Shown here in pieces: positions 631 through 34,058 of a stretch of 42,925 nucleotides of DNA (position 1 is the first letter of the stretch; each line of letters begins with the position of its first letter). Made by a program: the position numbers and the translations under genes. The stretch comes from Tepidisphaeraceae bacterium. Lineage in GTDB: Bacteria > Planctomycetota > Phycisphaerae > Tepidisphaerales > Tepidisphaeraceae. The stretch lies in the NCBI GenBank assembly GCA_035656825.1, contig DASRRR010000110.1, positions 1-42,925 on the forward strand, read 5' to 3'. Below the pieces are notes generated by a model that was not told the DNA's origin, searched no databases, and worked only from the letters and a program-made list of their open reading frames with translations.

Positions 631-639
631 TTCTTCCCC

Positions 640-7388: not shown

Positions 7389-7460
7389 GCGGGTGTAATT
7401 CAGTGGTAGAATGCCAGCCTTCCAAGCTGGACGTCGAGGGTTCGAATCCCTTCGCCCGCT
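7389..7460 (+). tRNA. tRNA-Gly (anticodon TCC)
   Basis: Acceptor stem GCGGGTG/CGCCCGC with G-T wobble, D-loop AGTGGTAGA, anticodon stem CCAGC/GCTGG with loop CTTCCAA (anticodon TCC), T-arm GAGGG-TTCGAAT-CCCTT, discriminator T; near-identical in architecture to E. coli tRNA-Gly(UCC). CCA not encoded. Confidence 0.9.
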
Positions 7461-10597: not shown

Positions 10598-10692
10598 TGT
10601 AGTAACCCGGGGTCGTGCGTGCCGGTAAAGATTCTACTACGCTTTGTGCGGCTTGCACGCGAATTGTCGGTACAATCGCCGGAAGGTTTCGC

Positions 10693-11775: not shown

Positions 11776-11785
11776 GGTGTGAACA

Positions 11786-14700
11786 TTGATGAGATCACAC
11801 GTGGGGCGGTTCGCCGTCCGGCAGGCTGTGCCGATTTTGTTTTTGATCGCCGTGGTGTGCGCCGCGGGGGCGTATGCGGCGCTGCATATGCCGTCGGCGG
11901 TCTTTCCGCAGACGGATTTTCCGCGCGTGGTGGTGATGGTCGAGAACGGGATGATGCCGGCCGATGAGATGATGGCGACGGTGACCCGGCCGGTGGAAGA
12001 GGGGATGAAGGATATTCAGGGGTGCCAGACGATTCGGTCGTCGACGGGGCGCGGGACGGCGGAGATTGATCTGTTTTTCTCGTGGGATGTGGATATGCGC
12101 CAGGCCGAGATGTATGTGCTCGGACGGCTGGGGCAGATACGGGCGGGGTTGCCGGCGACGGTGACGACGGATGTGTATCGGATGACGTTTTCGACGTTTC
12201 CGATCGTGGGGATTAGTCTGACCGGGCAGCCGGGGGCGGGGGATGATGTGAAGCGGTGGGAGACGGCGGAGTATGCGATTAAGCCGAGACTGCTGCGGAT
12301 ACCGGGGGTGGCGCGGGTGGAGATATTGGGGGGGCATCGGCCGGAATTTCAGGTGGAGTATGATCCGCAGAAATTGGCGGCGGCGCGGCTGACGGCGGCG
12401 GATCTGGTGGATGCGCTGACGAAGAATAATCTCGCCGCGGCGGCGGGGATGCATCAGGAAAATCATAGTTTGTATCTGGCGGTGGTGGATGGGCGCGTGC
12501 GGTCGGCGGAGGAGATCGCGAATTTGACGGCGGGTGTGGTGGCCGGGCATCCGGTGCGGATCGGGGATGTGGCGAAGGTGCAGCGCGGGGCGGAGCCGGC
12601 GTTTGATGTGGTGACGGCGAATGGGACGGATGCAGTGCTGCTCAATATTTATTCGCAGCCGGACGGGAGCACGACGGAGATCGCGGATCAGTTGCATGAG
12701 CAGATCCGGCAGATCAAGCATGAACTGGCGGCGGGGCAGAAGCTGACGTTTTTTTATGATCAGTCGCTGCTGGTGAAAGATTCGGTGCGCAGCGTGTGGG
12801 AGGCGATCGCATTTGGCCTGATTTTGACGGTGGTGATCGTTTATCTGTTTCTGCGCAGTTGGGGGATGACGCTGGTGACGGTGCTGGTGATCCCGGTGAC
12901 GGTGCTGTTTACGGTGCTGGTGATGAAGGCGCTCGGGCTGAGTTTTAACCTGATGACTCTGGGGGGAATCGCGGCGGCGATCGGGTTGGTGATCGATGAT
13001 GCGATCGTGGTGGTGGAAGCGATTCATGCCAAGGCGCGGGAGGGATTGGGGAGATTGGCGCTGATGGAGGCGGCGATTGGGGAGATTCTGCCGCCGCTGA
13101 TTGGATCGACGCTGACGCCGGTGGTGGTGTTTATTCCGCTGGCGTATTTGACGGGGGTGGCGGGGATTTTCTTTCGGGCGCTGGCGATCACGATGGTGGT
13201 GGCGCTGCTGACGTCGCTGATGCTCGCGCTGACGTTTACTCCTTCGCTGGCGGCTTGGTTTATCCCGGCGGTCGAGATGGAGGCGGAAGAGGGGGAGGAG
13301 TCGATGGGGTTTGCGATGGTGCTGGTGGTGGCGCTGTATCAATTCACAGTGCGGCTGACGCTGAAGCATCGGTGGTTTACGCTGGGGATTTGTGGTGTGG
13401 TAATGGCGGCGACGGTGGTTTTGTATGGGCGGTTGCAGAGTGATTTTCTGCCGGCGATGGATGAGGGGGGATTCATTATTGATTATGTGCTGCCGCCGGG
13501 GACGAGCCTGGCAGAGTCGGATCGGGAGCTGCGGCAGGCAGAGGATGTTCTGAAGACGATCCCCGAAGTGGAGAGTTTTTCGCGGCGGACGGGGGCGGCG
13601 CTGGGGGTGCATCTGGTTGAGCCGAATACGGGGGATTTTTTGGTGAAGCTGCGCGCGTCGCGTAAGCGGAAGACGGCGGTGGTGATCGATGAGTTGCGGG
13701 ATGATTTGTATGAGGCGCTGCCGCGGGTGAATTGGGAGTTTCCGGGGATTTTGACGGATTTGATCGGGGATTTGACCTGGTCGGATGAGGCGATCGAGGT
13801 GAAGTTTTTTTCGTCGGATACGCAGAAGCTGGAGAAGCTCGGGCCGCGGATTGAGGAGACGCTAAAGAAGATTCCGGGGGTGGTGGATACGACCAGTGGG
13901 CTGATTTATACGGGGCCTTCGATCAGCCTGCGCGTGCGCGATGTGGAGGCGCGGCGGTTTGGTTTGACGACGACGGATATCGCGGCGGCGGTGAATGCGG
14001 CGCTATTGGGGCAGACGGCGTCGACGGTGGCCGAGGCGGATCGGGTGATCAATGTGCGGGTGCGTGCGAATCATGATGAAGTGGATCGGCTGGCGAAGAT
14101 TCGGGCGCTGCCGATCCGAACGCCGACGGGGGCGATTGTGCGGGTGGATGAAGTGACGGAGGTGACAGAGACGCCGGGGCAGTTGGAATTGGAACGGGAT
14201 AATCTGCGGCAGAACATCGCGGCGACGGCGAATTTGCAGGGGCGCGATCTGGGGAGCGCGATGGTGGATGTGAAGAAGGCGCTGGCGGATGATCCGGAGT
14301 TGCCGGCGGACGCGATCGAGTTTGGTGGGCTGTATGAGCAGCAGCGGGAATCGTTTCATAATCTGACGATTGTGCTGGCGGCGGCGCTGGCGCTGGTGTT
14401 TCTGGTGGCGCTGATTGAATTTGGCACGGTGCGCGAGCCGATTGCGATTGTGTCGGGGGCGGCTCTATCCTCCTTTGGAATTGTGGTGGCTCTGCTGATT
14501 ACGCATACGTCGTTGAATATCGTGACGTTTCTCGGGGCGATTATCGGCATGGGGATCGTTCATAAGAATGGGCTGCTGATGCTGGATAGCGTGAAGCATC
14601 TGCGGGCGACCGGAGTGAAGTTGTACGATGCGCTGGTGTGGTCGGGGAGGAGGCGATTGCGGCCGGTGCTGATGACATCGCTGGCGGCGGCGCTGGGGAT

Positions 14701-14860
14701 GTTGCCGCTGGCGTATGGGATCGGGTCGGCGGATATGTTGCGGCCGCTGGCGATTGCGGTGATCGGGGCGGTCTGCGTGTCGGTGCTGTTGTCGCTGGTG
14801 GCGACGCCGACGATTTATTATGTATTGTGTCGCCTGACCCGATCAGGGCGAGAGGATTGA
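11786..14860 (+). CDS. efflux RND transporter permease subunit (AcrB/CzcA family), 1024 aa
   Basis: 12-TM architecture with two large periplasmic loops, characteristic length, conserved TM4-region charged residues; immediately follows adaptor gene with a 10-bp gap. Confidence 0.9.
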   Translation: MMRSHVGRFAVRQAVPILFLIAVVCAAGAYAALHMPSAVFPQTDFPRVVVMVENGMMPADEMMATVTRPVEEGMKDIQGCQTIRSSTGRGTAEIDLFFSWDVDMRQAEMYVLGRLGQIRAGLPATVTTDVYRMTFSTFPIVGISLTGQPGAGDDVKRWETAEYAIKPRLLRIPGVARVEILGGHRPEFQVEYDPQKLAAARLTAADLVDALTKNNLAAAAGMHQENHSLYLAVVDGRVRSAEEIANLTAGVVAGHPVRIGDVAKVQRGAEPAFDVVTANGTDAVLLNIYSQPDGSTTEIADQLHEQIRQIKHELAAGQKLTFFYDQSLLVKDSVRSVWEAIAFGLILTVVIVYLFLRSWGMTLVTVLVIPVTVLFTVLVMKALGLSFNLMTLGGIAAAIGLVIDDAIVVVEAIHAKAREGLGRLALMEAAIGEILPPLIGSTLTPVVVFIPLAYLTGVAGIFFRALAITMVVALLTSLMLALTFTPSLAAWFIPAVEMEAEEGEESMGFAMVLVVALYQFTVRLTLKHRWFTLGICGVVMAATVVLYGRLQSDFLPAMDEGGFIIDYVLPPGTSLAESDRELRQAEDVLKTIPEVESFSRRTGAALGVHLVEPNTGDFLVKLRASRKRKTAVVIDELRDDLYEALPRVNWEFPGILTDLIGDLTWSDEAIEVKFFSSDTQKLEKLGPRIEETLKKIPGVVDTTSGLIYTGPSISLRVRDVEARRFGLTTTDIAAAVNAALLGQTASTVAEADRVINVRVRANHDEVDRLAKIRALPIRTPTGAIVRVDEVTEVTETPGQLELERDNLRQNIAATANLQGRDLGSAMVDVKKALADDPELPADAIEFGGLYEQQRESFHNLTIVLAAALALVFLVALIEFGTVREPIAIVSGAALSSFGIVVALLITHTSLNIVTFLGAIIGMGIVHKNGLLMLDSVKHLRATGVKLYDALVWSGRRRLRPVLMTSLAAALGMLPLAYGIGSADMLRPLAIAVIGAVCVSVLLSLVATPTIYYVLCRLTRSGRED

Positions 14861-14862
14861 CT

Positions 14863-17031
14863 ATGTCGATTTCCAGGATGGCGGCGGTGTTGGTGGCGCT
14901 GGTGGCTTCGCCGTTGTGGGCGGGGCCGCTGGTGGATCTGGTGAATCCGCTACAGGGGACGGATTCGGTATCGTCGTTGTCGCATGGGAATACATTGCCG
15001 CTGGCGGGCGTGCCGTGGGGGATGACGAATTGGACGGTGCAGACGGGGGGCGGAAATTGGTTTTTTCAGTACGGGGCTAAGCAGGTGCAGGGGTTTCGCG
15101 CCACGCGACAGCCCAGTCCTTGGATGGGAGATTATGGGCAATTTACGCTGATGCCGGAGACGGGGGAGTTGCAGACGAATGCGGAGAAGCGGGCGGCGGA
15201 GTATGACGTGAATGCATCGGTGTTTCGGCCGGACTATTTGAAGGTGGAGTTGAAGCGATACGCAGTCACGGCTGAATTGACGGCAACCGAACGCTGCGCG
15301 GCGGCGCGGTTTACGTTTCAGCAGGGAGATACGGGGCGGCTGATTATCGATCCGGCGGGAGAGGGGAAAGTGGAAGTGGTGGGGCGGGAGATTCGCGGGT
15401 ATTCCAAGGCGGCTCATGGCGGCGTGCCGGGGAATTTTGCGGGGTATTTTGTCATTGAGATGGATCGCGATTTGACGAAGACCGGGACGAAATATGTGGA
15501 ATTTTCCGTCGCCGAGGCTCGCCAGGTGAATGTGAAGATCGGGACATCGTATATCAGTCTTGAACAAGCGGAGATGAATTTACGCCGGGAAGTGGGCGGG
15601 AGCTTTGATGACGTTCGCGCGACTGTAGCGGACGTATGGGAGAAGCATCTGGGGCGCATTGAGATTGCAGGGGCGGATGCCGAGCAGCGGAAGACGTTTT
15701 ATACGTGCATGTATCGGGCGATTTTGTTTCCGCACCGGTTTTATGAACTCGATGCGGATGGGAAGGCGATTCATTACAGCGCTTATGACGGCAAAGTGCA
15801 TGATGGGGTTGCGTACACCGACAATGGATTCTGGGATACGTATCGCACGGTCTATCCGTTTTATTCGATTGTGTATCCGGATCAGTTGAAGGAGATTTTG
15901 GAAGGGTATGTGGCGGCGTATCGGGAGAGCGGGTGGCTGCCGGAATGGCCTAGCCCGGGGCATTTGAGCGTCATGATCGGGTCGCATATCGATGCGGTGT
16001 TTGCCGATGCGGCGGCGAAGGGGATTGCGGGGTTTGATTTGGCGGGGGCGTATGAGGGGATGCGGAAGGATGCGTTTGTTGCCGGGCCGAGCGATGCGAT
16101 CGGGAGGCCGGGGCTGAAGGAGTATGAGGAGCTGGGGTATGTGCCGGAGGGGAAGGCGCGGTATTCGGTATCGACGACGCTGGATTATGCGTATGACGAT
16201 TGGTGCGTGGCCCAGGTGGCGAAGAAGCTGGGGAAGGATGAGGATTATCAGAAGCTCATGGCCCGGTCGCAGAACTATCGGAAGTTGTGGGATGAGTCGA
16301 CGGGATTCATGCGGCCTAAGAATGCGCAAGGGAAATGGGCGGAGGCGTTTGATCCTTATTATTGGGGCGGGCCTTATGTCGAGGGTGGGCCCTGGCAATG
16401 TTCGTGGGCGGTGCAGCATGACTTGGGCGGCTTAAGAGAATTGCTGGGCGGGCCCGCGAAAATGGGGGAGAAGCTGGATCGGTTGCTGGGGACGCCGCCT
16501 GTCTTTCATGTGGGGGGGTATGGCAGCGTGATTCATGAAATGCGCGAGATGTGGATTCGGGAGTTCGGGCAGTATGCGCACTCGAATCAGCCGAGCCATC
16601 ATTTGTTGTATCTGTATGCGGTGGCGGGGGAGCCTTGGAAGATGGAGTATTGGACCCGGCGCGTCTGCGCGGAGTTATACAATTCCGGCCCGGATGGGTT
16701 TGCCGGGGATGAGGACAATGGGGAGATGTCCTGCTGGTATTTGCTGAGCACGATGGGGGTCTATCCGCTCTGTCCGGGTCGGCCGGATTATGTATTGACC
16801 AGCCCGGCGTTTGATCGGGCGACGATTCATCTGCGAAATGGGAAAGACTTCGTCGTGGCCGCGAAGAATAACGGCCAGCGGAATGTCTATGTGCAGAAGC
16901 GGGCGCTGGATGGCAAGCCTTATTCGAGTTCGTATATCCCGCAAGCGGCGCTGATTGCCGGCGGGACTTTGGATGTGGAGATGGGCGAGCAGCCGAATCT
17001 CCAGGCCGGGGGGGATGGGGAGTTGCCGTAG
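14863..17031 (+). CDS. GH92-family glycoside hydrolase (putative alpha-1,2-mannosidase), secreted
   Basis: Signal peptide MSISRMAAVLVALVASPLWAG; N-terminal VNPLQGTDS...GNTLP...PWGM and C-terminal GDEDNGEMSCWYLLSTMGVYPLCPG match GH92 signature regions (recalled from memory). Confidence 0.8.
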   Translation: MSISRMAAVLVALVASPLWAGPLVDLVNPLQGTDSVSSLSHGNTLPLAGVPWGMTNWTVQTGGGNWFFQYGAKQVQGFRATRQPSPWMGDYGQFTLMPETGELQTNAEKRAAEYDVNASVFRPDYLKVELKRYAVTAELTATERCAAARFTFQQGDTGRLIIDPAGEGKVEVVGREIRGYSKAAHGGVPGNFAGYFVIEMDRDLTKTGTKYVEFSVAEARQVNVKIGTSYISLEQAEMNLRREVGGSFDDVRATVADVWEKHLGRIEIAGADAEQRKTFYTCMYRAILFPHRFYELDADGKAIHYSAYDGKVHDGVAYTDNGFWDTYRTVYPFYSIVYPDQLKEILEGYVAAYRESGWLPEWPSPGHLSVMIGSHIDAVFADAAAKGIAGFDLAGAYEGMRKDAFVAGPSDAIGRPGLKEYEELGYVPEGKARYSVSTTLDYAYDDWCVAQVAKKLGKDEDYQKLMARSQNYRKLWDESTGFMRPKNAQGKWAEAFDPYYWGGPYVEGGPWQCSWAVQHDLGGLRELLGGPAKMGEKLDRLLGTPPVFHVGGYGSVIHEMREMWIREFGQYAHSNQPSHHLLYLYAVAGEPWKMEYWTRRVCAELYNSGPDGFAGDEDNGEMSCWYLLSTMGVYPLCPGRPDYVLTSPAFDRATIHLRNGKDFVVAAKNNGQRNVYVQKRALDGKPYSSSYIPQAALIAGGTLDVEMGEQPNLQAGGDGELP

Positions 17032-17049
17032 GGGGTGTATGATCGTGGC

Positions 17050-18363
17050 ATGAAAACTTTCCTGCTGGCGCTGGTCGTGCTTGGTATTTTCAGTGCCATA
17101 TCCGATGCCCAGGATGTGACCGTCTTTCAACACGCCCGGCTGATCGATGGCACCGGCGCTCCGCCGCGCGATGACACCACGATCGTCGTTCGCGGACATA
17201 CCATCGAGTCCGTTGGCACGGACATCGCCATTCCCGCCGGCGCGACTCTCATTGACGCGCGCGGAAAGACCATCATGCCGGCCCTGGTCGTAGCGCATGC
17301 GCATCTGGGACTGGTCCAAGGCACCAGTTCCTCGACCAGCCATATCACCGAAGCCAACGTCCTGCATCAGCTTTATCGCTACGCGAACTATGGCATCGGC
17401 ACGATCACGTCGCTGGGACTGGATCACGAGCTCATTTTTGATCTGCGCCAGCAGCGCGATCAGCATGAGTTGGTCTGCCCAAGGATTCTCACCGCCGGGC
17501 ATGGATTCACCGCTCCGCAAGGCGGCCCGGGAGCGTCGATCGGGGATCAGTTGTATCGCCCTGCCACCGTCGAGGAGGCGCGCAAGGATGTCGTGGAGCT
17601 GGCGGGAAAGCATCCGGACATCGTGAAGATCTGGCTGGATGATTTCGGCGGCTCGTCCAAGCGCATTCAGCCGGAGATTTATAAAGCGATCATCGACGAA
17701 GCGCACAAGCATGGCCTGCGCGTCGCAGCGCACATCTACTATCTGGCGGATGCCAAGGCGATCGTGGAGGCGGGCGTGGATATCCTGGCGCACAGCATCC
17801 GCGATCTGCCCGTGGATGATGAACTGATTCACAAAATGCGCGACCGCGGCGTCTTTCTGATTCCGACGCTGGACATGATCGAAGTCTCCTACGTCTATGC
17901 CGACAAGCCGGCGTGGATGAAGGAGCCGTTCTTCACCAATGCCGCCGAGCCGGGGGTGGTGGCGATGCTGGAGAGCCCCAAATATGCCCCGCAGAACCGC
18001 GACCGGCGCGTGCTGAAACTGGCGGAGCAGAACCTGAAGATTCTCTTCGACGCCAACGTCAAGATCGGATTCGGCACCGATACCGGAGCCGCGCCGATTC
18101 GCGTGCAGGGATTTGGCGAACACCGCGAATTGCAGTTGATGGTCGAGGCGGGCCTGACCCCCATGCAGGCAATCCAGTGCGCCACCCAGCACAGCGCCGA
18201 ACTCCTGGGAATCTGGAATACGGTCGGCACGCTCGAGCCGGGCAAGGAGGCGGACCTGATCGTGCTGGACGCCGACCCATCGGTGGACATCCACAACACC
18301 GAGCGGATCAACGCCGTCTGGCTGGACGGAAAGAAAGTGGACGCGGATTCCCAATCGAAATAG
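17050..18363 (+). CDS. amidohydrolase family protein (metal-dependent hydrolase), secreted
   Basis: Signal peptide MKTFLLALVVLGIFSAISDA; HAHLG metal-binding motif, ...AHSIRD..., ...GTDTGAA...; typical imidazolonepropionase-like amidohydrolase layout. Confidence 0.8.
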   Translation: MKTFLLALVVLGIFSAISDAQDVTVFQHARLIDGTGAPPRDDTTIVVRGHTIESVGTDIAIPAGATLIDARGKTIMPALVVAHAHLGLVQGTSSSTSHITEANVLHQLYRYANYGIGTITSLGLDHELIFDLRQQRDQHELVCPRILTAGHGFTAPQGGPGASIGDQLYRPATVEEARKDVVELAGKHPDIVKIWLDDFGGSSKRIQPEIYKAIIDEAHKHGLRVAAHIYYLADAKAIVEAGVDILAHSIRDLPVDDELIHKMRDRGVFLIPTLDMIEVSYVYADKPAWMKEPFFTNAAEPGVVAMLESPKYAPQNRDRRVLKLAEQNLKILFDANVKIGFGTDTGAAPIRVQGFGEHRELQLMVEAGLTPMQAIQCATQHSAELLGIWNTVGTLEPGKEADLIVLDADPSVDIHNTERINAVWLDGKKVDADSQSK

Positions 18364-18609
18364 AAGCGCTTGCATTGGAAAATTTGGGCGGTACAGTCCC
18401 GCTCTCTCGGGCGGCAACGTGCCCCTGGTGCCACGCACCTTGCAGGGAAGTCGGTGACGGAGCGACACGCTCTTATTCCGACGCGGACGCGCCGCTGTGA
18501 TGGACGTTTCAATCTTTCGGTCGGTATGCCACTGTCCTGATGCGAATCGGGATGGGAAGGTGATCGGAAGACAGTCCTAAGCCAGAAGACCGGCCCGGGA
18601 AACAGGTCT

Positions 18610-18624
18610 GACACAACGTGTGTC
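18610..18624. promoter_or_regulatory. perfect 6-3-6 palindrome GACACA-ACG-TGTGTC nested in an outer GGCCCG/CGGGCC inverted repeat (18592..18629)
   Basis: Directly visible in the intergenic region between the amidohydrolase stop (18363) and the PEP-CTERM gene start (18777). Confidence 0.35.
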
Positions 18625-18776
18625 GGGCCAACCGTATTCGTCCTCGCGATTCGGGACGGCCGGGTCTGGCTTCCAATCCAATTGTGGCTGGTTGTGCGCT
18701 CGCTCTGGCGATGGCGCGCAAGATGCACGTTTGCGTTGGCGCTTGCCCATGGCCTTCCCGCAGGAAGGAGCGACCC

Positions 18777-19721
18777 ATGGGTCGTAGCGCTATTCGGAGC
18801 GGCATCGTTGCCGCTGGTCTGATTCTGGTTGGAAATTCTTCAACCCTGCTGGCGGCAGTCTCTGCGACGGTGGTCCCCGGCACGCTGGTGCAGGGATCGG
18901 TGCAAGCCTCACTCGGGGCGGGCACGACGTACAACAATGAAGGGAGCAATCTTCGTGATTGGCCGCTGGACACGGGTGGGACGGCGACCAACAAGTACGC
19001 CATCAGCCTCACCAATGCCAATTTCAATGGCAATTCCTTTGGCGGGAGCCTGAATTCCATTCTGGCGTTTGGAAATGGAGGCGGCGTGACGCTGAAGTTC
19101 GATTCGCCGATCCATCCGGTCGATGGGCAAAAAGAATTCGGGATCTTCACCGCCCAGATGATCATCGCCTCCAGCGGCGCGATCTTCAGCGGCAACATGG
19201 AGGCCGCAATTCTCGTCAGTGATGATGGAAACAGTTGGTATACGCTGGACGGAGCCTCGGTGGCGTCTCCGACGACGTATGTGGCGACGAGTTACAAGCT
19301 CAATGCGCCGACGATGTCGTATGACTATACGACCTTCGCCAAGGGGTGGACCTACGGATCGCCCGGAACGACGCCGGCAAATCTGAGCGCGCTGGCGGTG
19401 GCGAATTACCAGACACCCATGCCGGATGACTCCCTGTTTAATGGTGCCGGGACCAATGCCCAGCGCTTGGCGCTCAAGACCGACACCTCCACGGCGGATT
19501 ATGACGCAGTCATGGGAACCTCCGGCGGAGGAAACTGGTTCGACATCTCCGGCAGCGGACTGGCCGAGGTGAATTACATTCGCCTTAATGGGGTGAACGT
19601 AGGGACCGGATCATTCAATGGCGACCGCCTGGATGCGGTGTTCGCCAACGCGCTGGCTGTGCCGGAACCAAGCGTGCTGGGCGTGATAATGATGGGAGTG
19701 ATGTTGCGACGTCGCCGGTGA
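18777..19721 (+). CDS. PEP-CTERM sorting-domain protein (secreted, exosortase substrate)
   Basis: GGAAGGAG RBS-like stretch before ATG; signal peptide; C-terminal VPEPSVLGVIMMGVMLRRRR (PEP motif + TM helix + Arg-rich tail). Confidence 0.75.
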   Translation: MGRSAIRSGIVAAGLILVGNSSTLLAAVSATVVPGTLVQGSVQASLGAGTTYNNEGSNLRDWPLDTGGTATNKYAISLTNANFNGNSFGGSLNSILAFGNGGGVTLKFDSPIHPVDGQKEFGIFTAQMIIASSGAIFSGNMEAAILVSDDGNSWYTLDGASVASPTTYVATSYKLNAPTMSYDYTTFAKGWTYGSPGTTPANLSALAVANYQTPMPDDSLFNGAGTNAQRLALKTDTSTADYDAVMGTSGGGNWFDISGSGLAEVNYIRLNGVNVGTGSFNGDRLDAVFANALAVPEPSVLGVIMMGVMLRRRR

Positions 19722-19747
19722 ATGCTGGTTCGTTGATGCTCGCAAAA

Positions 19748-19775
19748 GCCCACCGACCGCGGTCGGTGGGCTTTG
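19748..19775 (+). terminator. Rho-independent terminator after the PEP-CTERM gene
   Basis: Perfect 24-nt GC-rich palindrome GCCCACCGACCGCGGTCGGTGGGC followed by TTTGG, 27 nt downstream of the stop codon. Confidence 0.6.
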
Positions 19776-19811
19776 GATGAACATGCACTCTTCCTTAGAG
19801 ACAGGAGCGCC

Positions 19812-20543
19812 ATGCGCGCGTTTACGTTGATTGAATTACTCGTGGTCATGGGGATTGTGGTGGTAGTGATGGCAATCTTGCTACCCGCGCTGGGAATTGC
19901 CCGGCAGTCGGCGCAGCGCGTGCAGTGTTTGAGCAATCTGCGGCAGATGGTGATTGCGGCCAATATTTATGCGGACCGGTTTCATGGGAGTTATCCCATT
20001 GCGTATTATTCAGATAACTCCGGCGGCGTCGTTACAGATTACGCCTGGGATTTGACGACGATTTCAGGAGGAACTGAGCCGACGCGTGTGGTGGCGGGTT
20101 TGCTTTGGGAAGGGAAAGGAGCGGGAGCGATTCAGCAGTGCCCGTCGTTTGATGGAGATGCGAATTGGCTGGTCGATCCGTTTACAGGATACAACTACAA
20201 CACCAGTTATATCGGGCATGGACAGTTTGAGACGGTGGAGGCGCCAGCGAAGATGGTGGCGATCCGCCGGCCGGTCGAGGTGGCGATCTTTGGCGATGGA
20301 CAGTGGGGAGACGGCGCAAATAAGTTTATGCGCGCCCCTTGGCCGAGTGCGGGGGATCTAGGATTCATCGGCCGCTGGGGCGGGACGCAGGGATTTCGCC
20401 ATCGCGGGAAAACCAATGTCGCATTTTGCGACGGCCATGCGGAGTCGTTGGCGGATCGGTTTGTGGAGAATGCCGATGGGGCGGAGAACGTCGCGAAAGG
20501 AACGGGCTTCTTGTCGGCGGATAATCGGGCATATGGGCAGTAG
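19812..20543 (+). CDS. DUF1559 / H-X9-DG domain protein with prepilin-type N-terminal cleavage/methylation leader
   Basis: N-terminus MRAFTLIELLVVMGIVVVVMAILLPAL (type IV pilin-like class III signal); C-terminal RHRGKTNVAFCDGHAESL contains the H-X9-DG motif. This family is abundant in Planctomycetes/Verrucomicrobia. Confidence 0.8.
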   Translation: MRAFTLIELLVVMGIVVVVMAILLPALGIARQSAQRVQCLSNLRQMVIAANIYADRFHGSYPIAYYSDNSGGVVTDYAWDLTTISGGTEPTRVVAGLLWEGKGAGAIQQCPSFDGDANWLVDPFTGYNYNTSYIGHGQFETVEAPAKMVAIRRPVEVAIFGDGQWGDGANKFMRAPWPSAGDLGFIGRWGGTQGFRHRGKTNVAFCDGHAESLADRFVENADGAENVAKGTGFLSADNRAYGQ

Positions 20544-20634
20544 TCGATTTTTATCCGGGCCTCGTTCACTTCGACCAAAACGATTCCGGGCACCCTCGGC
20601 ATTCCTGATCGGTTGGCCGCGTCTTGCCGGCGGG

Positions 20635-20808
20635 TTACATCTCGAGCGCTGGTTGCATCTCGACAGCGGGTTGCCCGGCGGCCAGCGCCCGGGCGGCGGC
20701 GAGAATGCGCTCCTGCTCGAGGCGGATTTGGGCCCGCGTCAGACGCGAGCCGCGATGTCGTCCTTTGCCATTGGCGCGGCACCTGCGCTGCCGTTCGGCG
20801 GCGGTCAT
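20635..20808 (-). CDS. possible small basic protein (MTAAERQRRCRANGKGRHRGSRLTRAQIRLEQERILAAARALAAGQPAVE...), speculative DNA-binding regulator next to the repeat array
   Basis: Only an ORF with Arg-rich N-terminus followed by a helical-looking segment; no recognisable family; transcribed away from the 21-bp array. Confidence 0.15.
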   Translation of the reverse strand: MTAAERQRRCRANGKGRHRGSRLTRAQIRLEQERILAAARALAAGQPAVEMQPALEM

Positions 20809-20964
20809 GGGTCGAAAGGTTCCCTTTGGGAAAAACGGTTGCATGGCCTTGATTCATCGGCCTATCGGCGATTTGGCTTCAGCCGTTTTGACAATGATAA
20901 CCATCGCCGCCTGGGAGCGATAAAACCGCCTTAAACGCCGCTGGCGACCATCGCGCACCCCATG

Positions 20965-21174
20965 TTTCGTGACGCGCAGTCAATCTTTCGTGACGCGCAC
21001 GCACGCTTCCGTGACGCGCAATCGCGTTTTCGTGACGCGCAACCAGGCTTTCGTGACGCGCAACCGAGCTTCCGTGACGCGCACTTGAACTTTCGTGACG
21101 CGCAATCACATCTTCGTGACGCGCCCCCATACTTCCGTGACGCGCAACTGACCTTTCGTGACGCGCCCTCGACG
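20965..21174. repeat. 10 tandem direct repeats with exact 21-bp period: 13-14-nt conserved core TTYCGTGACGCGC(A) + 7-8-nt variable segment (iteron-like array)
   Basis: Units start at 20965, 20986, 21007, 21028, 21049, 21070, 21091, 21112, 21133, 21154 (all +21). Core is invariant except T/C at position 3 and one unit with CTT; the variable part differs in every unit. Confidence 0.95.
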
Positions 21175-21277
21175 GTGAAAGGCCTGAGATGAAAGAGGGC
21201 GAATGGAAGGGGCAGCGATTCGTCTGTCAGACGCGGCAAAATAAATTGTGTCCCCTTATCAGCGCCCTTATCTGGCC

Positions 21278-21850
21278 TCAATCGGGTGCAGGGTTGGACC
21301 CACGTCCTCCAGATGCGTTCGAGACCGGCGTTCCGGATTGACGGAAGAGCACCGAAGCACCCAAAGCCCAAGCCACGATCCCCCCGCACGTTAACACGAA
21401 TAGGCCCAGAACCGTCCATGGCCCCATGGCTGGCAAGTACCCCGGCACTGGGCTCCCCGCCATCATGCAGATGCCGAGTAGGGCAGCGATTATGTTGAGA
21501 AAGGTCGCAAACCAGCCGATCCCCTTGCGACCACTGGCGTGCTTGCCCCGCGGTAATCCCAGCAACGCGGTTACTCCTGCTGCTATCAATAAAGAATCAA
21601 TCACGCGCACGAATAACAGTCGATCCGCGGTGCGATTGATGCCACACCTCACGGCAAGAAATAAAGTGCCCATGCTCAGGAGGCCGGTGGGCGTAAGCTC
21701 CGACATCGTTGGAATGTGTAAGTTAGGGTCAAACCCGCTGGCGCCGATCAGGATTAGCAGTATGGCGGCAATCCGACCGATTTTGAGGACCAAACCCGGC
21801 GCGCTCCTCGCCTCTTTCCGCCGCTTGCCCGGTGGTGATATTCCCAGCAT
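21278..21850 (-). CDS. hypothetical polytopic membrane protein (4-5 TM) in lower-GC islet
   Basis: Hydrophobic segments IAAILLILIGASGF, LLSMGTLFLAV, LLIAAGVTALLGL, FATFLNIIAALLGICMMA, VLGLFVLTCGGIVAWALGA; start chosen at Met avoiding overlap with the upstream ORF; no family recognised. Confidence 0.4.
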   Translation of the reverse strand: MLGISPPGKRRKEARSAPGLVLKIGRIAAILLILIGASGFDPNLHIPTMSELTPTGLLSMGTLFLAVRCGINRTADRLLFVRVIDSLLIAAGVTALLGLPRGKHASGRKGIGWFATFLNIIAALLGICMMAGSPVPGYLPAMGPWTVLGLFVLTCGGIVAWALGASVLFRQSGTPVSNASGGRGSNPAPD

Positions 21851-21863
21851 CTGATCGGGATCC

Positions 21864-22106
21864 TCACTCACGTCTGGCTCCCTGCCGCAACAAGAGGGTG
21901 ATGAAAAAGACCAGTAGTCCCCCATTCTCGAAAATTCGCGCAATCACCCCGTAGGTACTGCTGATGTGCGTCAATGTCTTGATGGACCATCCAGCGGATT
22001 CTCGCTGACCACCAAGCCAATCAAAAACAAAAGGCGCGGCAATTGATAAAACGAGGCTTATTGCCACGCCGAGAATCGCAATCACAGTTGCAGTCCTGAT
22101 CGTCAT
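21864..22106 (-). CDS. hypothetical small membrane protein (2 TM, 80 aa)
   Basis: MTIRTATVIAILGVAISLVLSIAAPFVF...GGLLVFFITLLL; lower local GC (~50%) than the surrounding ~62%. Confidence 0.35.
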   Translation of the reverse strand: MTIRTATVIAILGVAISLVLSIAAPFVFDWLGGQRESAGWSIKTLTHISSTYGVIARIFENGGLLVFFITLLLRQGARRE

Positions 22107-22230
22107 CGAACCTCACAAAGATCTTGTTTGATTTGATGCCCTGCCAGCACAACTGGCGCACATCATATCGCCACCGTCAGTTCATGACAAATTCGTGCCG
22201 ATGACGCTCCGGAGAAGGCGAGAGGGTAAG

Positions 22231-22390
22231 GAATTGGTTCAATTGCAGTTGCATTGGTTCCAGTTTGGTCCTGCGGCGGCGGGGTTATGCGGGCTGGATG
22301 TCTCCGCTTCGGAGTAAATCGCGGAGCAGGATGGTTTCGGAGAGGTTATCGCAGGGGCTGCATTCTTCCCAGTCGATCCAGACGTGGGCG
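22231..22390. repeat. left copy of a ~155-bp direct repeat (duplicate of the 3' end + downstream flank of the isomerase gene at 23946..24785)
   Basis: Aligns with 23891..24047 at ~80-85% identity including ccagtttgRtc, gcggcggg, gcgggcYggatgtctc, aaatcgcgRag.aggatggtttcggagag, tcttcccagtcgatccagacgt; one 6-bp in-frame indel (cgcttc). Confidence 0.8.
22285..22390 (-). pseudogene. 3'-terminal gene fragment (~35 codons) paralogous to the C-terminus of the xylose-isomerase-like TIM-barrel gene; fused in-frame to unrelated upstream sequence in ORF 22285..22731
   Basis: Encoded HVWIDWEECSPCDNLSETILLRDLLRSGDIQPA* vs intact gene's YVWIDWEECNTCDNLSETILLRDLLRDIRPA*; similarity ends abruptly at ~22390. 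Confidence 0.55.
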
Positions 22391-22872
22391 GGCGTTTGAC
22401 GATTGAGCGATGCGATCTTATCCGGCCCGCATTCGCTCCGACAAGAACGATCCTGGCCCCTTCGGTCGCAACCAGCGCCGCAACACCCGCTCGCCGTCGA
22501 TCCCTCCAGCATTCGCTTGATACTGTGTACTTCGCTCTCGTTCTTATTCGCTTCGCTTGGCGCGATGGGCGATCGCTCATTGATTGGTGTCTTATCGACT
22601 GATCTGCCGGAATCCGTCGATGCGACTGCCCATCGCGCCAGGGAGGGCACAAGGTTAACCTGGGGAACCTGGAACTCCTGCGAATACCCCGAATCGCCCG
22701 CTCCCCGCCATCCCGCGAGATCTTTCTTCAAAACCCTGCCAAAATGGCCGTAATCGTCGAAATGAGATAGTAGATTATCGGCGAATCGGCGGTATCTTCA
22801 TCTGTAGTCAATCATGGCATATTTGCTGGTTGGCCGTTGCTTCGAACAGGCTTATTGCTGGAAGGCTGAAAA

Positions 22873-23853
22873 ATGAAGATTGCACACACTCGCGCGAAGC
22901 GCGGTTTCGTCCTCGCTGTGTTCGTAACCACGCCTCTGTTCATCACCGCGGCCGCCCGGGCTTCTTACTACGTCTCTGATTCCGGCTCCTCCACCGCCGC
23001 GGCGGGGAGTACCTATCCCAACGATCCCGGCAACAGCGCGGGTCGCGACGGGGTCGCCGGCTCGGACAGCCACTCATTTTTCAGCGGAAGCGTCGCACAA
23101 CCGATCGTCACTGGCACCATCTCTTCCTCCACCGACGGCACCGCGTATCAGCCGATCCATCAAACCTATCTCGCCCAGGACGCCGGCGGCAATCTCGAAG
23201 ACACCGCCACCGTCGGCGCGCTCCATTCCACCATCTCCGCCTACAGCAACACCGGTTTGCCCATGGAAAACGTCAACAACGGCAACGCCAGCGCCCATAC
23301 CTCCGACTACCTGACCTGGGGCGATACCGTCCACTTCGTCAGCGCCAATCCCGCAGGCTCCTATTACACGGTTGCTCTTGGACTCGATGCCGCCATCGAT
23401 GCGACCGGGACCTTCAGCCCCTACGAGACGGGCTCTTTCGTCGGCAAAGCGCAGGCTACCGTCACCATCTCCGGCAATCTCGATTTCTCGCAGTACTACC
23501 AACCCATCTTCAATATTCAGGCCCTCCAAGGCATTCAGTCCGACGGCACCATCGTCAACACCAGCTACATCAGTCCCCAAACCTCGCTCACGTTTTTTGT
23601 CCCCTATCAGGAGTTTATCAATCTCACGTTTGCCGCCACTCTTCAAACCGACGCCTATGCCACCCTCGGCGACGGTCAGGCGCTGGTCAACGCCGGCAAC
23701 ACCGCTCTCTTCGCCATCTCCTCACCCGACCCGCTGGCTTCCTATACATCCGACTCGGGCACCGTGTATGCGACAAGCCTGCCGGAACCCGCCGCGCTCG
23801 GCCTCCTCGCCGCCCCCGCGCTGGCGCTGGCCCATCGCCGCAATCGCAAATGA
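22873..23853 (+). CDS. PEP-CTERM sorting-domain protein (second paralog), secreted
   Basis: Signal peptide MKIAHTRAKRGFVLAVFVTTPLFITAAARA; C-terminus SLPEPAALGLLAAPALALAHRRNRK; C-ending codon usage, opposite to flanking genes. Confidence 0.75.
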   Translation: MKIAHTRAKRGFVLAVFVTTPLFITAAARASYYVSDSGSSTAAAGSTYPNDPGNSAGRDGVAGSDSHSFFSGSVAQPIVTGTISSSTDGTAYQPIHQTYLAQDAGGNLEDTATVGALHSTISAYSNTGLPMENVNNGNASAHTSDYLTWGDTVHFVSANPAGSYYTVALGLDAAIDATGTFSPYETGSFVGKAQATVTISGNLDFSQYYQPIFNIQALQGIQSDGTIVNTSYISPQTSLTFFVPYQEFINLTFAATLQTDAYATLGDGQALVNAGNTALFAISSPDPLASYTSDSGTVYATSLPEPAALGLLAAPALALAHRRNRK

Positions 23854-23890
23854 CCCGTTGTGCGTCGGGACAAAGAACTCGAGACGATCA

Positions 23891-24047
23891 GGAATCATTT
23901 CCTATATAGTTCGATTGTTTCCAGTTTGATCGTTCAGCGGCGGGATTAGGCGGGCCGGATGTCTCGGAGCAAATCGCGAAGGAGGATGGTTTCGGAGAGA
24001 TTGTCGCAGGTGTTGCACTCTTCCCAGTCGATCCAGACGTATTCGAT
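23891..24047. repeat. right copy of the ~155-bp direct repeat (authentic 3' end of the isomerase gene)
   Basis: See left copy 22231..22390. Confidence 0.8.
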
Positions 24048-24785
24048 GCCGATCCAGCCGGGGTAGTTTTGGGCGCGCAGGCGGGAGAGGATGTCGTTGT
24101 AATTAATGATGTTGTCCTTGACGGGGCATTGCAGGCGGCCTTTTTTGGCGCCGCGGGCGTGGAAGTGGGAGGCGTAGGGCAAGAGCGGGTGGGCGGCGGA
24201 GTCGGGGAGGCCGGAGCGGGTGAAGTGGGTGTAATCGAGCGTGAGCGTGAGTCCGGGGACGGAGGTGACGAGTTGGAGGGCGCTGGCGGGGTCGGGGGCG
24301 AGGGAGCCGACGTGGGCTTCTACGCCCAGGGTGATTTGGTGAGAGGCGGACTGGGCGACACGCCAGGCGAGTTCATCAGCGGCGCGAGAGAAGGAGGTGG
24401 CCGCGTCTTCGTTGGGATTGAGAATTCCCGGGAGGGTGGTGACGTGGTGGCAGCTCGCGGCGGAGGCGTAGTCGAGGGTTTTGAGGAACGCATCGCGGGC
24501 GTGGGCGCGGCGGGAAGCGTCGGGGTGGTTGATGGCGTAGGGGGTGAAGTCGGGGTCGAGCTGAAGGAAGACGTCGGCGCATTGGAGGTTGAGGTCGGAG
24601 AGTTTGCTGGCGAGGGCGCGGCCGGAGCGTTCGGGGCCGGCGGCGAATTCGCGGCTGGGCCAGAGGTGAGAGCGCTCTTCGAAGAGGCCGATGTCGACGC
24701 CGTCGAGGTTGAGCATGAAGATGAGTTTGAGGACGCTGTCGTGGGGGAGGAGGGGGAAGGTGAAGTCGGCACAGGCTAGTTTCAT
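23946..24785 (-). CDS. sugar phosphate isomerase/epimerase (xylose isomerase-like TIM-barrel protein)
   Basis: MKLACADFTFPLLPHD... typical AP-endonuclease-2/xylose-isomerase-like TIM barrel N-terminus and length (279 aa). Confidence 0.7.
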   Translation of the reverse strand: MKLACADFTFPLLPHDSVLKLIFMLNLDGVDIGLFEERSHLWPSREFAAGPERSGRALASKLSDLNLQCADVFLQLDPDFTPYAINHPDASRRAHARDAFLKTLDYASAASCHHVTTLPGILNPNEDAATSFSRAADELAWRVAQSASHQITLGVEAHVGSLAPDPASALQLVTSVPGLTLTLDYTHFTRSGLPDSAAHPLLPYASHFHARGAKKGRLQCPVKDNIINYNDILSRLRAQNYPGWIGIEYVWIDWEECNTCDNLSETILLRDLLRDIRPA

Positions 24786-24807: not shown

Positions 24808-26229
24808 TTACTTGGTCAATTCGATCTTGGTGATCTGGTTGGCTTTGACTTCGATGCGTTTGGCGGCGGGGTCGGGGGCATCGTGAGGGAGGCCGGCGGT
24901 GGAGAGGAGGTAGGGGCCGGGGGGGACTTTGGTGAATTCGAAGGTGCCGTCGGGGTGGACGGCGGTGTCGCCGCTCCAGTTGATGGGGTGGTCGCCGGTG
25001 GAGGTGATGCTGACGTTGCGCGGGTTGGCTCCATCGGCGGGGGTGAGGAGAGCGCCTTTGACGGTGCCGGTGGCGGTCATGTGGAGGGTGAGGTGGGTGT
25101 AGTCGGGGCGGGTGCCATTGGAGGGTGGGCCGAAGATGTGAATGGAGTCGAGTTGTTCGTGAGAGTCGTCGCTGGCGAAGAGTTGGAAGGAGCCTTCGGG
25201 GAGGTTGGGGAGTTGGAAGGCGCCGTGGGCGTCGGTGACGGCTTTGACGGGGTCAGGGAGAAGGTAGCCGCGACCGTCGAGGGCGATGGTGCAGGTGGCT
25301 TGGACGGTGACGCCGGGGAGGGACGTGCCGTCGGTGTTCAGGACGGTGCCGGAGGCGGTGATGGAGGTGGTGAGCTGGACGGTGTGGTGTTTGAGGGTGT
25401 TTGGGCCGAAGGTCTCGGAACCGAGGGTGCGGGAGGCGTGGCCGGGGGCGGCGACGGAGATGCGGTACTTGCCGGCGGGGACGTGTTTGAGTTCGAAATG
25501 GCCGGCGGGATCGGATTGGGTCTGGGCGATGGTCACGTAGCTTTTAGAGTTGTAATTGGCGACGGTGATCTGGGCGGCGGGAATGGGTTTGGAGGAGAGG
25601 AGGTCGTAGACATCGCCGCGGAGGACGGAGGCGTCGGCGCGGTCGTAGCCGGCAGAGGTGGCGCGTTCATCGACGAGGGTGATGCCGGGGGGTAGTTTGA
25701 TTTGGGTCCAGTCGATGCCTTTGCCGTCGGGGCCGGCGATGTTGACGGCGAGCGATGGGGGCGGAACGGAATTGCGGATGCCGCCTCTGGGATCGTCATT
25801 GGTCAGGGCATTGAAGGGATTGTTGAACATTTGATGCCAGGAGCGCGGGGTCCAGACGATGAAGGTCCAATCGACGTGGGTATCCTTTGAGGAGGGATCC
25901 ATGTCCTGGAGCCAGAAGCTTTCTTCAAGGCCTTCGCGGATGATGAGGCGGCGTTCGGGGGCGTTGATTTTGGCGAAGGTGTCGAGGGCATGTTGGAAGG
26001 AGGCGGTGTCGCCGCGATAGAGGAAGTGGAATTCGCCGCCGCCGTGTGGGGGGCCTTCCCAGTACGCGATGCGGGAGTGGAGGTTGACGAGGTCGACGCT
26101 GCCGGCTGGCCAATTGCCATCGCCCGCGGGAGCGTAGCCGGTATTGCCGGTGATGAGGGCGCGGGCAGGGAAAGAGGTGAGGAGAAGCATGGCGGAAAGG
26201 ATGCCGATGCGGAGTTTGGTGGGGGACAT
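24808..26229 (-). CDS. secreted protein with repeated carboxypeptidase-regulatory-like (Ig/transthyretin-like) domains
   Basis: Signal peptide MSPTKLRIGILSAMLLLTSFPARA; three segments of the GxV.D..G.P...A.V.....S..T.T...G.F.L..VP.G.Y type. Confidence 0.5.
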   Translation of the reverse strand: MSPTKLRIGILSAMLLLTSFPARALITGNTGYAPAGDGNWPAGSVDLVNLHSRIAYWEGPPHGGGEFHFLYRGDTASFQHALDTFAKINAPERRLIIREGLEESFWLQDMDPSSKDTHVDWTFIVWTPRSWHQMFNNPFNALTNDDPRGGIRNSVPPPSLAVNIAGPDGKGIDWTQIKLPPGITLVDERATSAGYDRADASVLRGDVYDLLSSKPIPAAQITVANYNSKSYVTIAQTQSDPAGHFELKHVPAGKYRISVAAPGHASRTLGSETFGPNTLKHHTVQLTTSITASGTVLNTDGTSLPGVTVQATCTIALDGRGYLLPDPVKAVTDAHGAFQLPNLPEGSFQLFASDDSHEQLDSIHIFGPPSNGTRPDYTHLTLHMTATGTVKGALLTPADGANPRNVSITSTGDHPINWSGDTAVHPDGTFEFTKVPPGPYLLSTAGLPHDAPDPAAKRIEVKANQITKIELTK

Positions 26230-29240: not shown

Positions 29241-30494
29241 ATGTCCGAACCGACCATCGCTCCCGAGCCTGATCTGAACCAGCCCCCCAAGGGGGCGCTT
29301 GGCATCATCTTCCTCATTGCCTTAATCGACCTCTTGGGCTTTGGGATCATCATCCCGCTCATGCCCTTTTACGCCAAGATGTATGAGGCGTCCGCGTTGC
29401 AGGTCACCCTCCTCTTTTCCATTTACTCCATCTGCCAATTCATCGCCTCTCCGCTGCTGGGTGTGATCAGCGATCGGTATGGTCGGCGTCCCGTGCTGAT
29501 CCTCTCTCAGATCGGCTCAGCCATTGGCTATGTTCTGCTCGGCGCTGTCACACAGTTCCATTGGACCAGCGCAACGGTCGCACTTCTACTTATCTACACG
29601 TCCCGCATAATCGACGGCATCTCCGGCGGCAATATCTCCACCGCCCAGGCCTATATCTCCGACGTCACCACCGCCGCCAATCGCAGCAAAGGCCTCGGCG
29701 TGATCGGTGCCGCCTTCGGCATCGGATTCACCCTCGGACCCGCCTTCGGAGGCATCCTCGGCGGCATCCACCCCTCTTTCCCCGGCTACGCCGCCGCCTG
29801 CTTCAGCCTCCTCGCCGCCTTCCTGACCTACCTCAAACTCCCCGAATCCCGCCAGCATAAACCCGTCGAAGCCGAAGCCTGGCTGCACCCGCGCGTCTTC
29901 GTACCCATCCTCCGCAAGCGCATCCTCCTCCACCTCCTGCTCATCGGCACCGTCTCCATGGGCGCGTTCGTCATGATGGAATCCACCATTGCCATCTACC
30001 TCGCCCGCGACGACACCTTCCATTGGAACATGACTAAAGTCGGCCTCTACCTCTCCCTCGTCGGCCTGGTCATCGCCGGCGTGCAGGGCGGCTTGATCGG
30101 CCGCCTGACCAAGCTCTTCGGCGAATGGCCCCTCACCCAGACCGGCCCCCTTCTCGTCGCCGCCGGCATGGCGCTCTTCGTCGGCGTCGATTATCACCCG
30201 GTCCTCTACATCCTCATCCCCGCCGGCATCATCAACGCCACCGGCCGCAGCATCACCACCCCCACACTCTACGCCCTCATCTCCAAATCCTGCGCCCCGG
30301 ACGAACAAGGCACCGTCTTCGGGCTCCTCCAAGGCCTCTCCGGCATCGCCCGCGTCATCGGCCCCATCGTCGCCGGCATCGCCTACGAACATCACCCCAC
30401 CAGTCCCTACTGGCTCTCCGGCTCCATCATGCTCGCCGTCATGCTCTGGACAATTTCCGTCCACTCCATGTCCAAACGCACCGTGGCGATCTAA
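29241..30494 (+). CDS. MFS transporter (12-TM, Tet/TCR-like)
   Basis: LGFGIIIPLMPFY, GRRPVLILSQIGSAIGY, motif-A-like loop, 12 hydrophobic segments. Confidence 0.8.
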   Translation: MSEPTIAPEPDLNQPPKGALGIIFLIALIDLLGFGIIIPLMPFYAKMYEASALQVTLLFSIYSICQFIASPLLGVISDRYGRRPVLILSQIGSAIGYVLLGAVTQFHWTSATVALLLIYTSRIIDGISGGNISTAQAYISDVTTAANRSKGLGVIGAAFGIGFTLGPAFGGILGGIHPSFPGYAAACFSLLAAFLTYLKLPESRQHKPVEAEAWLHPRVFVPILRKRILLHLLLIGTVSMGAFVMMESTIAIYLARDDTFHWNMTKVGLYLSLVGLVIAGVQGGLIGRLTKLFGEWPLTQTGPLLVAAGMALFVGVDYHPVLYILIPAGIINATGRSITTPTLYALISKSCAPDEQGTVFGLLQGLSGIARVIGPIVAGIAYEHHPTSPYWLSGSIMLAVMLWTISVHSMSKRTVAI

Positions 30495-31057: not shown

Positions 31058-31151
31058 GCAATCATAGTAGCGTCAATCGCCGGATCGGGCAGCGCGGGAT
31101 AGAAGACTTATTTGGGACGTTCTGGCCGCTGGGGTAAAGTCATTGGCTGCG

Positions 31152-33999: not shown

Positions 34000-34058
34000 C
34001 AGACTCCTGATTCAGCCCGGCTTGGCAGGGTGGGGTGTCATGCCTATTGTAGCGAGCT

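Follow-up and report, generated by a model that had tools for sequence, protein, structure and literature searches.

Architecture of the span

The window studied here, the whole stretch of DNA that was analysed, comprises 42,925 nucleotides from a Tepidisphaeraceae bacterium of the phylum Planctomycetota (assembly GCA_035656825.1, contig DASRRR010000110.1, forward strand), and our subject is the span at 20550-22400, which sits between a B12-riboswitch operon and a PEP-CTERM-type gene. It holds a cassette of ~0.5 kb (20635-21166), formed by a 21-bp repeat array, a short box and a gene for a small basic protein, followed by two genes for membrane proteins and a relic duplicate of the 3′ end of a nearby isomerase gene (Table 1). 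A first-pass annotation, made from the letters only, had drawn attention to these features and read them together as a horizontally acquired or decayed mobile segment; the features are real, but joining them into one story is unsupported. Gene calls of the Joint Genome Institute (JGI) refer to metagenome contig Ga0376653_0001275, of which the window makes up nearly the whole.

Table 1. Features of the span and its flanks, in order of position (aa, amino acids; ORF, open reading frame; E, expectation value)
Feature	Position	Strand	Basis
Cobalamin riboswitch	18392-18612	+	74 bits, E 2e-17
PEP-CTERM-like protein gene, 314 aa, directly downstream of the riboswitch	18777-19721	+	
DUF1559/prepilin-type N-terminal methylation protein gene, HX9DG C-terminus	19773..20543	+	Pfam SBP_bac_10, N_methyl; TIGR04294
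Small basic gene, 69 aa (57 aa from internal Met at 20808)	20635..20844	-	Homologue family
TTTTATCG box (CGATAAAA on + strand), AT-rich island between array and small gene	20918..20925	-	
Array of ten 21-bp direct repeats	20952..21166	-	Tandem Repeats Finder: period 21, 10.2 copies
190-aa integral membrane protein gene, 4-5 helices	21278..21850	-	Hydropathy and AlphaFold2 helices agree
80-aa protein gene, two predicted membrane helices	21864..22106	-	JGI call, hydropathy
Sigma-70-like promoter match TTGTCA-17-TATGAT (10/12), upstream of 80-aa gene; candidate	22162..22190	-	
Relic duplicate of isomerase gene 3′ end	22213..22385	-	Direct repeat of 23874-24040
PEP-CTERM-type protein gene, 326 aa	22873..23853	+	ORF; weak NF038120 match; host-like codons, C3 0.59
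Intact sugar-phosphate isomerase/epimerase gene (xylose isomerase-like TIM barrel)	23946..24785	-	Pfam AP_endonuc_2, E 3e-22

Nucleotide-level constraint on the repeat core

The array bears out the iteron-like repeats of the first-pass annotation, with ten exact copies of the core GCGCGTCACG on the minus strand at exact 21-bp spacing (chance expectation 0.37) and none in the window outside it. Read in the sense of the gene, the unit is (T/G)GCGCGTCACG(A/G)AA plus ~7 variable nucleotides. Among 61 unique units from the six lineages described below, positions 2-11 (GCGCGTCACG) hold 1.5-2.0 bits each and are almost invariant, positions 12-13 (AA) hold ~1 bit and the other eight positions are nearly free, with no 3-nt periodicity in the conservation. 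This pattern shows constraint on the core at the nucleotide level and argues for a nucleic-acid recognition site; as the units stand 21 bp apart, equivalent to two helical turns, all sites would be displayed on one face of the DNA.

That the array instead codes for a protein, a heptad repeat (F/L)RDA(Q/H)xx on the plus strand, can effectively be discarded. A 76-aa ORF at 20962-21192(+) does have its ATG exactly at the first repeat, and in its frame the T/C differences in TTY leave the amino acid unchanged, but all three positions of the codons CGT GAC GCG are invariant across the 61 units; moreover, the start, stop and length of the ORF are not kept in other loci, the core sequence by itself keeps five of the six frames open, and the codon score is poor (-0.30).

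Outside the core the units diverge quickly. Two loci with identical small proteins (L135 and L138) share 98.7% identity over 557 bp that include promoter and gene, yet only 80% in the array, where all differences lie outside the core, and the distal units of L138 look like those of L004, a different lineage. The spacers turn over quickly, probably via recombination between arrays. Metagenome contigs with the array (L008, L010, L064, L065, L137-L139) often start inside it or stop 60-220 bp beyond it, which suggests that strain-level array variants, or several copies of the cassette, disrupt assemblies.

Other 21-bp tandem arrays with a GCG(C/T)GTCACG core were also seen (L018 1432-1700, L047, L081, L064 108-339, L092, L071 and L105). 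Their units are uniform, for example TGCGCGTCACGCAAATAAGTA in an AT-rich host or GGCGCGTCACGTTTCCAGAGT at the start of a 68-kb contig, and no small-protein gene is visible beside those in L018, L047, L081, L064, L092, L071 and L105. At 1762-1971 of L010 (oriented), GCGTCACG units are followed directly by units of opposite polarity (AAACGTGAC...), a two-armed inverted layout unlike the array of the cassette.

Between array and gene, the TTTTATCG box does not vary among the six lineages aligned (a pattern search located seven loci, of which two belong to a single lineage). It lies 38-125 bp past the last repeat core and 93-143 bp ahead of the MTAAE codons of the small gene, of which it is a candidate -10/promoter element.

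The small basic protein carries an invariant motif under purifying selection

The 69-aa protein contains the motif MTAAERQRRCRANGKGRHRG, which is invariant among homologues in 10 protein clusters; these share 19 invariant columns, and the rest of the sequence varies. Most members continue with an Ala/Glu/Pro-rich linker and end in a (W/L)N(L/I)SAMAA tail, which is absent from the window copy and from three other clusters. In the codons of the motif, six lineages differ at 3, 2 and 17 sites at positions 1, 2 and 3, respectively; with variation mostly at third positions, it is the peptide, not the DNA, that is under purifying selection in the motif. The JGI annotation calls a 133-aa gene on the plus strand here (20533-20934), antisense to the conserved ORF, and the Logan annotation of an identical contig has a 57-aa minus-strand ORF instead. 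Given selection on the minus-strand peptide, the 133-aa call is probably a miscall, and the public annotation probably needs correcting to the opposite strand.

AlphaFold2, run on the family alignment, predicts two helices (residues 15-24 and 37-55; mean predicted local distance difference test (pLDDT) score 72) and no N-terminal strand. The first helix spans AAERQRRCRA and is followed by a loop (NGKGRHRG...) and then the second helix. Foldseek searches of the PDB with this model returned noise only (E above 7), and neither a ribbon-helix-helix nor a helix-turn-helix (HTH) fold was found by AlphaFold2, structural or sequence searches. A basic leucine zipper (bZIP)-like reading of the basic motif was rejected as the signature positions do not fit. 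Literature searches with the motif and core strings yielded just a coincidental primer match.

None of the three genes in the span (69, 80 and 190 aa) has a significant match in Pfam, NCBIfam, PHROGs, PADLOC or PDB sequences. The earlier statement that none can be assigned to a family thus holds for curated libraries; it does not hold for homologues, of which the basic ORF has a family and the 190-aa protein one.

The layout of the small protein (arginine-rich N-terminal motif, disordered linker, conserved C-terminal peptide) resembles that of N-type antiterminators, and the orientation of the array relative to the gene is constant. Both would suit a cassette that acts at the RNA level, its repeats being transcribed and bound by the arginine-rich N-terminus, as with a lambda N-type arginine-rich peptide or a protein-sponge RNA. 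We regard this as very unlikely: as RNA, the array is no more stably folded than its shuffled counterparts (z 0.10), the units have no conserved hairpin because their spacers are free, no Rfam family matches within the span, the array lies upstream of the conserved promoter-like box, and at L022 and L135 the upstream neighbour is divergent, so that there is no obvious sense transcript over the array. With no RNA structure and this position upstream of the box, a DNA site is the better reading of the array.

Array, box and gene are conserved as a unit

The cassette occurs in the window, in a Tepidisphaeraceae metagenome-assembled genome (MAG; L004/L008), in L022, in the P0009 group (L135-L139/L065), in L140 and in L141, and spans several Tepidisphaeraceae-like lineages. 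Every family member with enough upstream DNA has ~9-10 units of 21 bp with the same core and orientation, the TTTTATCG box and the ORF; in L004, for example, the one relative located by a genome scan, a 9.7-copy array of the same core and orientation lies just upstream of the gene. A DNA-pattern scan was productive, though it also returned many unrelated single matches and unrelated 21-bp tandem repeats; a protein-pattern scan of metagenomes for the small protein gave no confirmed locus. Conservation of the cassette as a unit is accompanied by selection on the protein encoded by the small ORF and by nucleotide-level constraint on the core. The cassette is intact and under purifying selection and is therefore not decayed, and it is previously undescribed in Pfam, NCBIfam, PHROGs, PADLOC, the PDB and the literature searched.

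Nothing beyond the cassette is common to loci of different lineages. Its neighbours vary (a histidine kinase, a beta-helix protein, an adhesin-like protein, a HigB/HigA-type pair and a zinc-ribbon protein), and no gene for a ParA/ParM/TubZ-type nucleoside triphosphatase (NTPase) was found in the window, L004, L022, L135, L140 or L141. In L141 a Gp49 (HigB-like) toxin and HTH antitoxin pair lies immediately beside the cassette (855-1536), and in L147, a contig with the sole homologue of the 190-aa protein, a Gp49/HI1420 toxin-antitoxin pair adjoins that homologue (1461-2086); these neighbours hint that the L141 cassette and the L147 homologue reside in accessory gene neighbourhoods.

The motif recurs in a phage initiator-like protein

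A 216-aa protein encoded by an IMG/VR phage contig (L148, IMGVR_UViG_3300020036_004862, 649-1299) carries TTAAERQRRCRANKKG ahead of a DnaT-like domain. Both mycobacteriophage RepA-like initiators and PHROG ‘replication initiation protein’ families match it (phrog_1408, E 8e-15; hhalign probability for the link 96%), and it has AERQRRCRAN in common with the cassette protein. This recurrence ties the motif to proteins that bind origin repeats. Just past the motif codons, the L148 DNA reads CGTGACGTCACGCGTGAC, where clustered GTCAC/GTGAC half-sites recall the core of the array; the likeness may be coincidental. Because the invariant peptide always co-occurs with the invariant core, and in view of the phage-initiator link, we infer that the small protein binds the ten sites.

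A narrow GC dip with two codon-atypical genes

The first-pass annotation had described the span as an islet of 50-55% GC (guanine plus cytosine) against flanks of ~62%. Against a window mean of 0.611, the span has a GC of 0.582 (11.5th percentile, ranked among 1850-bp windows of the 42,925-nt stretch), and 21200-22300 has 0.559 (2nd percentile). GC falls near 0.51 only at ~21850-22250 and to 0.49-0.55 only across ~21800-22300; the left end (20500-20900) is above average at 0.64-0.65. The islet is therefore real for ~500 bp, formed by the 80-aa gene and its upstream spacer, and does not extend to the whole span. Its 300-bp minimum (0.493 at 21901-22200) is the third lowest of the window, behind 1201-1500 and 51-350, and equally deep 300-500-bp troughs occur at 1-1500, 15400-15900 and 32450-32950. 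The tetranucleotide check proposed with the islet does not single the span out, its distance from the window being average (z 0.0-0.3).

The dip is largely the sum of ~1.2 kb of non-coding DNA (433 bp at GC 0.58 and 766 bp at GC 0.55; the 766-nt spacer RNA folds at z -2.0 on 20 shuffles) and two codon-atypical genes. Non-coding DNA elsewhere in the window has a GC of 0.48-0.61. It is at the codon level that the span stands out: A+T at fourfold-degenerate sites is 0.47 in the 80-aa gene (z 4.9) and 0.33 in the 190-aa gene (z 2.8), both above all 28 other window genes (0.15 +/- 0.06, maximum 0.29), with z-scores for GC at third codon positions (GC3) of -3.1 and -1.6, respectively. The small basic gene of the cassette has host-like codon usage. 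What remains of the islet is thus a narrow, modest dip with two genuinely codon-atypical genes.

The membrane-protein genes

Both minus-strand hydrophobic ORFs of the first-pass annotation exist, with 4-5 and two predicted helices. GAGG lies 5 nt ahead of the ATG of the 80-aa gene, the 190-aa gene starts 13 nt downstream of it, and the two are probably co-transcribed. The sigma-70-like promoter match upstream is at chance level (one found, 1.1 expected). Among 5.8e9 proteins the 190-aa protein matched only itself; among 1.8e9 representatives there was one partial match, which extends to 47% identity over 135 aa in L147 (829-1335), a contig with no array. This homologue marks the 190-aa ORF as a real gene of a rare family. 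For the 80-aa gene, coding status rests on the ORF, the ribosome-binding site and hydrophobicity. A holin match (E 0.4) was rejected as noise. Structure prediction, which had been suggested for both proteins, yielded for the 190-aa protein AlphaFold2 helices that agree with hydropathy, but no usable fold: the single-sequence model has a pLDDT of 52, too poor to search with.

The flat fourfold-site composition of the 80-aa gene suggests that it is foreign or young, and for the two membrane genes as a pair a horizontal acquisition is plausible; they are probably either acquired or very young. The competing account is that nothing was acquired and that the span is an ancestral, lineage-specific intergenic zone, in which non-coding DNA and short, weakly expressed genes are simply less GC-rich. 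The intergenic GC values and comparable troughs elsewhere in the window (1-1500, 15400-15900 and 31000-32950), the average tetranucleotide usage, an identical arrangement in a second sample and the fact that the left-hand genes (17035-20543) likewise fall in a ‘balanced’ codon class all fit such a zone. It sits poorly with membrane genes that exceed every other gene in fourfold A+T and whose homologues are nearly absent from very large databases, and with a cassette that turns up in unrelated contexts in other lineages; we consider it unlikely.

The isomerase relic and the chromosomal setting

The duplicated fragment placed at 22231..22390 by the first-pass annotation is real, with slightly different bounds (Table 1). 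It is 78.6% identical to 23874-24040 over 173 bp by blastn (90% over the 77 coding bases) and comprises the final 31 isomerase codons together with 72 bp of the spacer behind them; the tblastn alignment is confined to isomerase residues 249-279 and contains an in-frame insertion of two codons. A search of 22386-22872 for decayed remains of the upstream part, as in an isomerase pseudogene, found none. The two copies of the isomerase 3′ end bracket 22386-23873, with the PEP-CTERM gene inside and not the low-GC genes, so the scar belongs to the history of the PEP-CTERM gene and not to that of the low-GC genes.

The surroundings are those of an ordinary chromosome, with genes for NusB, FtsY, HtrA, a P450, an SNF2 helicase, an RND pump, GH92, glycosyltransferases and similar proteins. 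On the left, the cobalamin riboswitch, the 314-aa PEP-CTERM-like gene and, last, the DUF1559/prepilin-type gene form a B12-controlled operon. No integrase, transposase, recombinase, relaxase or Rep gene was found across the 43-kb window, no flanking repeats or att site enclosing the span were found, and the window's only tRNA (7389-7460) is ~13 kb off. Searches by tblastn against phage and plasmid records gave no match.

Over 15 kb, a Logan contig of another run matches the window at 100% identity and has the same arrangement. Identity look-ups with the isomerase, the 80-aa protein, the DUF1559 protein and the PEP-CTERM protein returned only the source contig and this Logan contig, and at NCBI an identical isomerase protein is present in a Tepidisphaeraceae MAG. 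The nearest isomerase orthologues are at most 75% identical and, like those at 68-71%, keep only an SDR-isomerase pair, with the SDR upstream.

These data bear on the possibility that the span is a decayed integrated plasmid or prophage, in which the array would be an iteron origin, the small protein a truncated initiator, the membrane genes holin-like or cargo, and the relic an att scar. The phased 21-bp repeats are iteron-like, a phage replication-initiator-like protein shares the motif, the codon usage of the membrane genes is foreign, toxin-antitoxin pairs stand beside the L141 cassette and the L147 homologue, and duplication of a gene 3′ end is a classic signature of site-specific integration. 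Yet the same compact architecture with an intact, selected ORF at seven loci is unlike independent decay, and genes for an integrase, Rep, relaxase, structural or lysis protein are lacking from the window and the other loci alike; the holin match amounts to noise, phage and plasmid records are silent, and the direct repeats flank nothing but the PEP-CTERM gene with its host-like codons. A decayed element of this kind is therefore, in our estimation, quite unlikely. Of the claim of an acquired or decayed mobile segment, the accessory-looking content and foreign codons survive; the lack of mobility genes, the independence of the three pieces and the intact cassette speak against the remainder. 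The span is an accessory patch and not a recognisable mobile element.

A composite patch with a predicted repeat-binding protein

The explanation that we favour, with a confidence somewhat above even, is that of a composite accessory patch in the chromosome, assembled from three independent parts: a cassette whose protein binds its array, a membrane-protein operon and the isomerase relic. In the cassette, the invariant arginine-rich helix-loop segment of the 69-aa protein would recognise the invariant core, and the protein would coat the array cooperatively, next to its own promoter. Such coating could control that promoter, build a higher-order nucleoprotein complex or do both, much as iteron-initiator or centromere-ParR/Omega/StbA complexes do. 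In members with the (W/L)N(L/I)SAMAA tail, the tail may dock a partner or a protease, and the window copy would represent a tail-less subtype. The membrane genes (22106->21278) would be a two-gene operon, either acquired or young, and the 173-bp relic would be the scar of a local duplication or of the insertion that placed the PEP-CTERM gene.

Several points weigh against this explanation. Binding of the array is a prediction; the AlphaFold2 model is a moderate-confidence two-helix hairpin that matches no known DNA-binding fold, and the likeness to the L148 protein is limited to ~20 residues. No partner gene (ParA, ParM or Rep) adjoins any cassette locus. Tetranucleotide usage does not flag the span as foreign, and the 80-aa ORF has no homologue evidence and could be a non-gene.

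Relation to known iterated-site systems

By analogy, the mode of action of the cassette would be closest to that of plasmid-borne iterated-site systems (iteron-Rep, ParR-parC, Omega and StbA). Plasmid centromere-binding proteins with iterated sites include ParR/parC (R1, pSK41), the Omega heptad arrays (pSM19035), ParG/parH and StbA/stbDR (R388). These also place the gene for a very small protein directly downstream of ~8-10 phased direct repeats at its own promoter, and their proteins combine an N-terminal DNA-contacting part with a flexible linker and a short conserved C-terminal peptide; autoregulation and a higher-order complex, which are the expected behaviour there, may by analogy be expected of the cassette. 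The cassette differs in its 21-bp period, 10-12-bp core and free spacers, in its chromosomal setting, in a protein with no detectable ribbon-helix-helix/HTH fold or sequence similarity to those families, and in having no ParA/ParM/StbB-type NTPase nearby in any of the seven loci.

With iteron origins (pPS10, RK2, F and P1; phage RepA/DnaT-like, phrog_1408) the cassette shares ~20-bp direct repeats on one helical face beside the gene of the presumed binder, as well as a motif that recurs in a phage replication-initiator-like protein; its ten units at exactly 21 bp fall within the ~17-22 bp range of phased iterons. Rep initiators are winged-helix proteins of the Rep_3/RepA type with about 250-350 aa, whereas the family described here has 57-121 aa and neither a winged-helix Rep domain nor a DnaT domain. 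At the cassette, only the 8-bp TTTTATCG box was seen, with neither DnaA boxes nor an AT-rich unwinding element, and the DNA is a chromosome with housekeeping genes. Lacking a Rep, an NTPase and a ribbon-helix-helix fold, and being chromosomal, the cassette falls outside iteron-Rep, ParR-parC, Omega and StbA systems alike. The span as a whole recalls genomic islands at gene 3′ ends, with codon-atypical orphan genes beside a duplicated host-gene 3′ end; unlike these, it has no integrase or excisionase, and the repeats enclose a 1.5-kb host-like PEP-CTERM segment.

A GC dip with orphan genes, as first described, is ordinary, and the cassette is the more useful object. The invariant 20-residue peptide and the invariant 10-bp core make up a clean, directly testable protein-DNA recognition pair, as predicted here, in a phylum in which almost no regulators or replication/partition elements have been characterised. 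Were the cassette initiator-derived or centromere-like and able to work with no motor or Rep beside it, the range of known iterated-site nucleoprotein systems would grow. We also entertain, as an improbable extension, that it belongs to a novel class of autonomous element in the chromosomes of Planctomycetota, a module reduced to ‘iteron plus initiator-motif’ that does without an adjacent Rep or ParA. If so, it might mimic an origin or act as a handcuffing decoy, so that the initiators of phages and plasmids that invade the cell are titrated or blocked; alternatively, a host factor might read it, via the SAMAA tail, as a site for anchoring or partition. The rapidly diversifying spacers might then reflect recombination or an arms race.

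Fourfold-site usage across the window

Fourfold-site usage is extremely polarised window-wide (1499-42205), with extremes at 7475-10597, 11786-14860 and 24808-26229. Many genes use C at 75-88% of these sites. The block 10615-17031(+) and the gene 30491-31057(-) use G at 63-85%, and genes at 17035-22106 and 31152-36894 are balanced. On the plus strand, skew blocks of the same sign run across changes of gene orientation, with 300-bp GC skew reaching +0.5.

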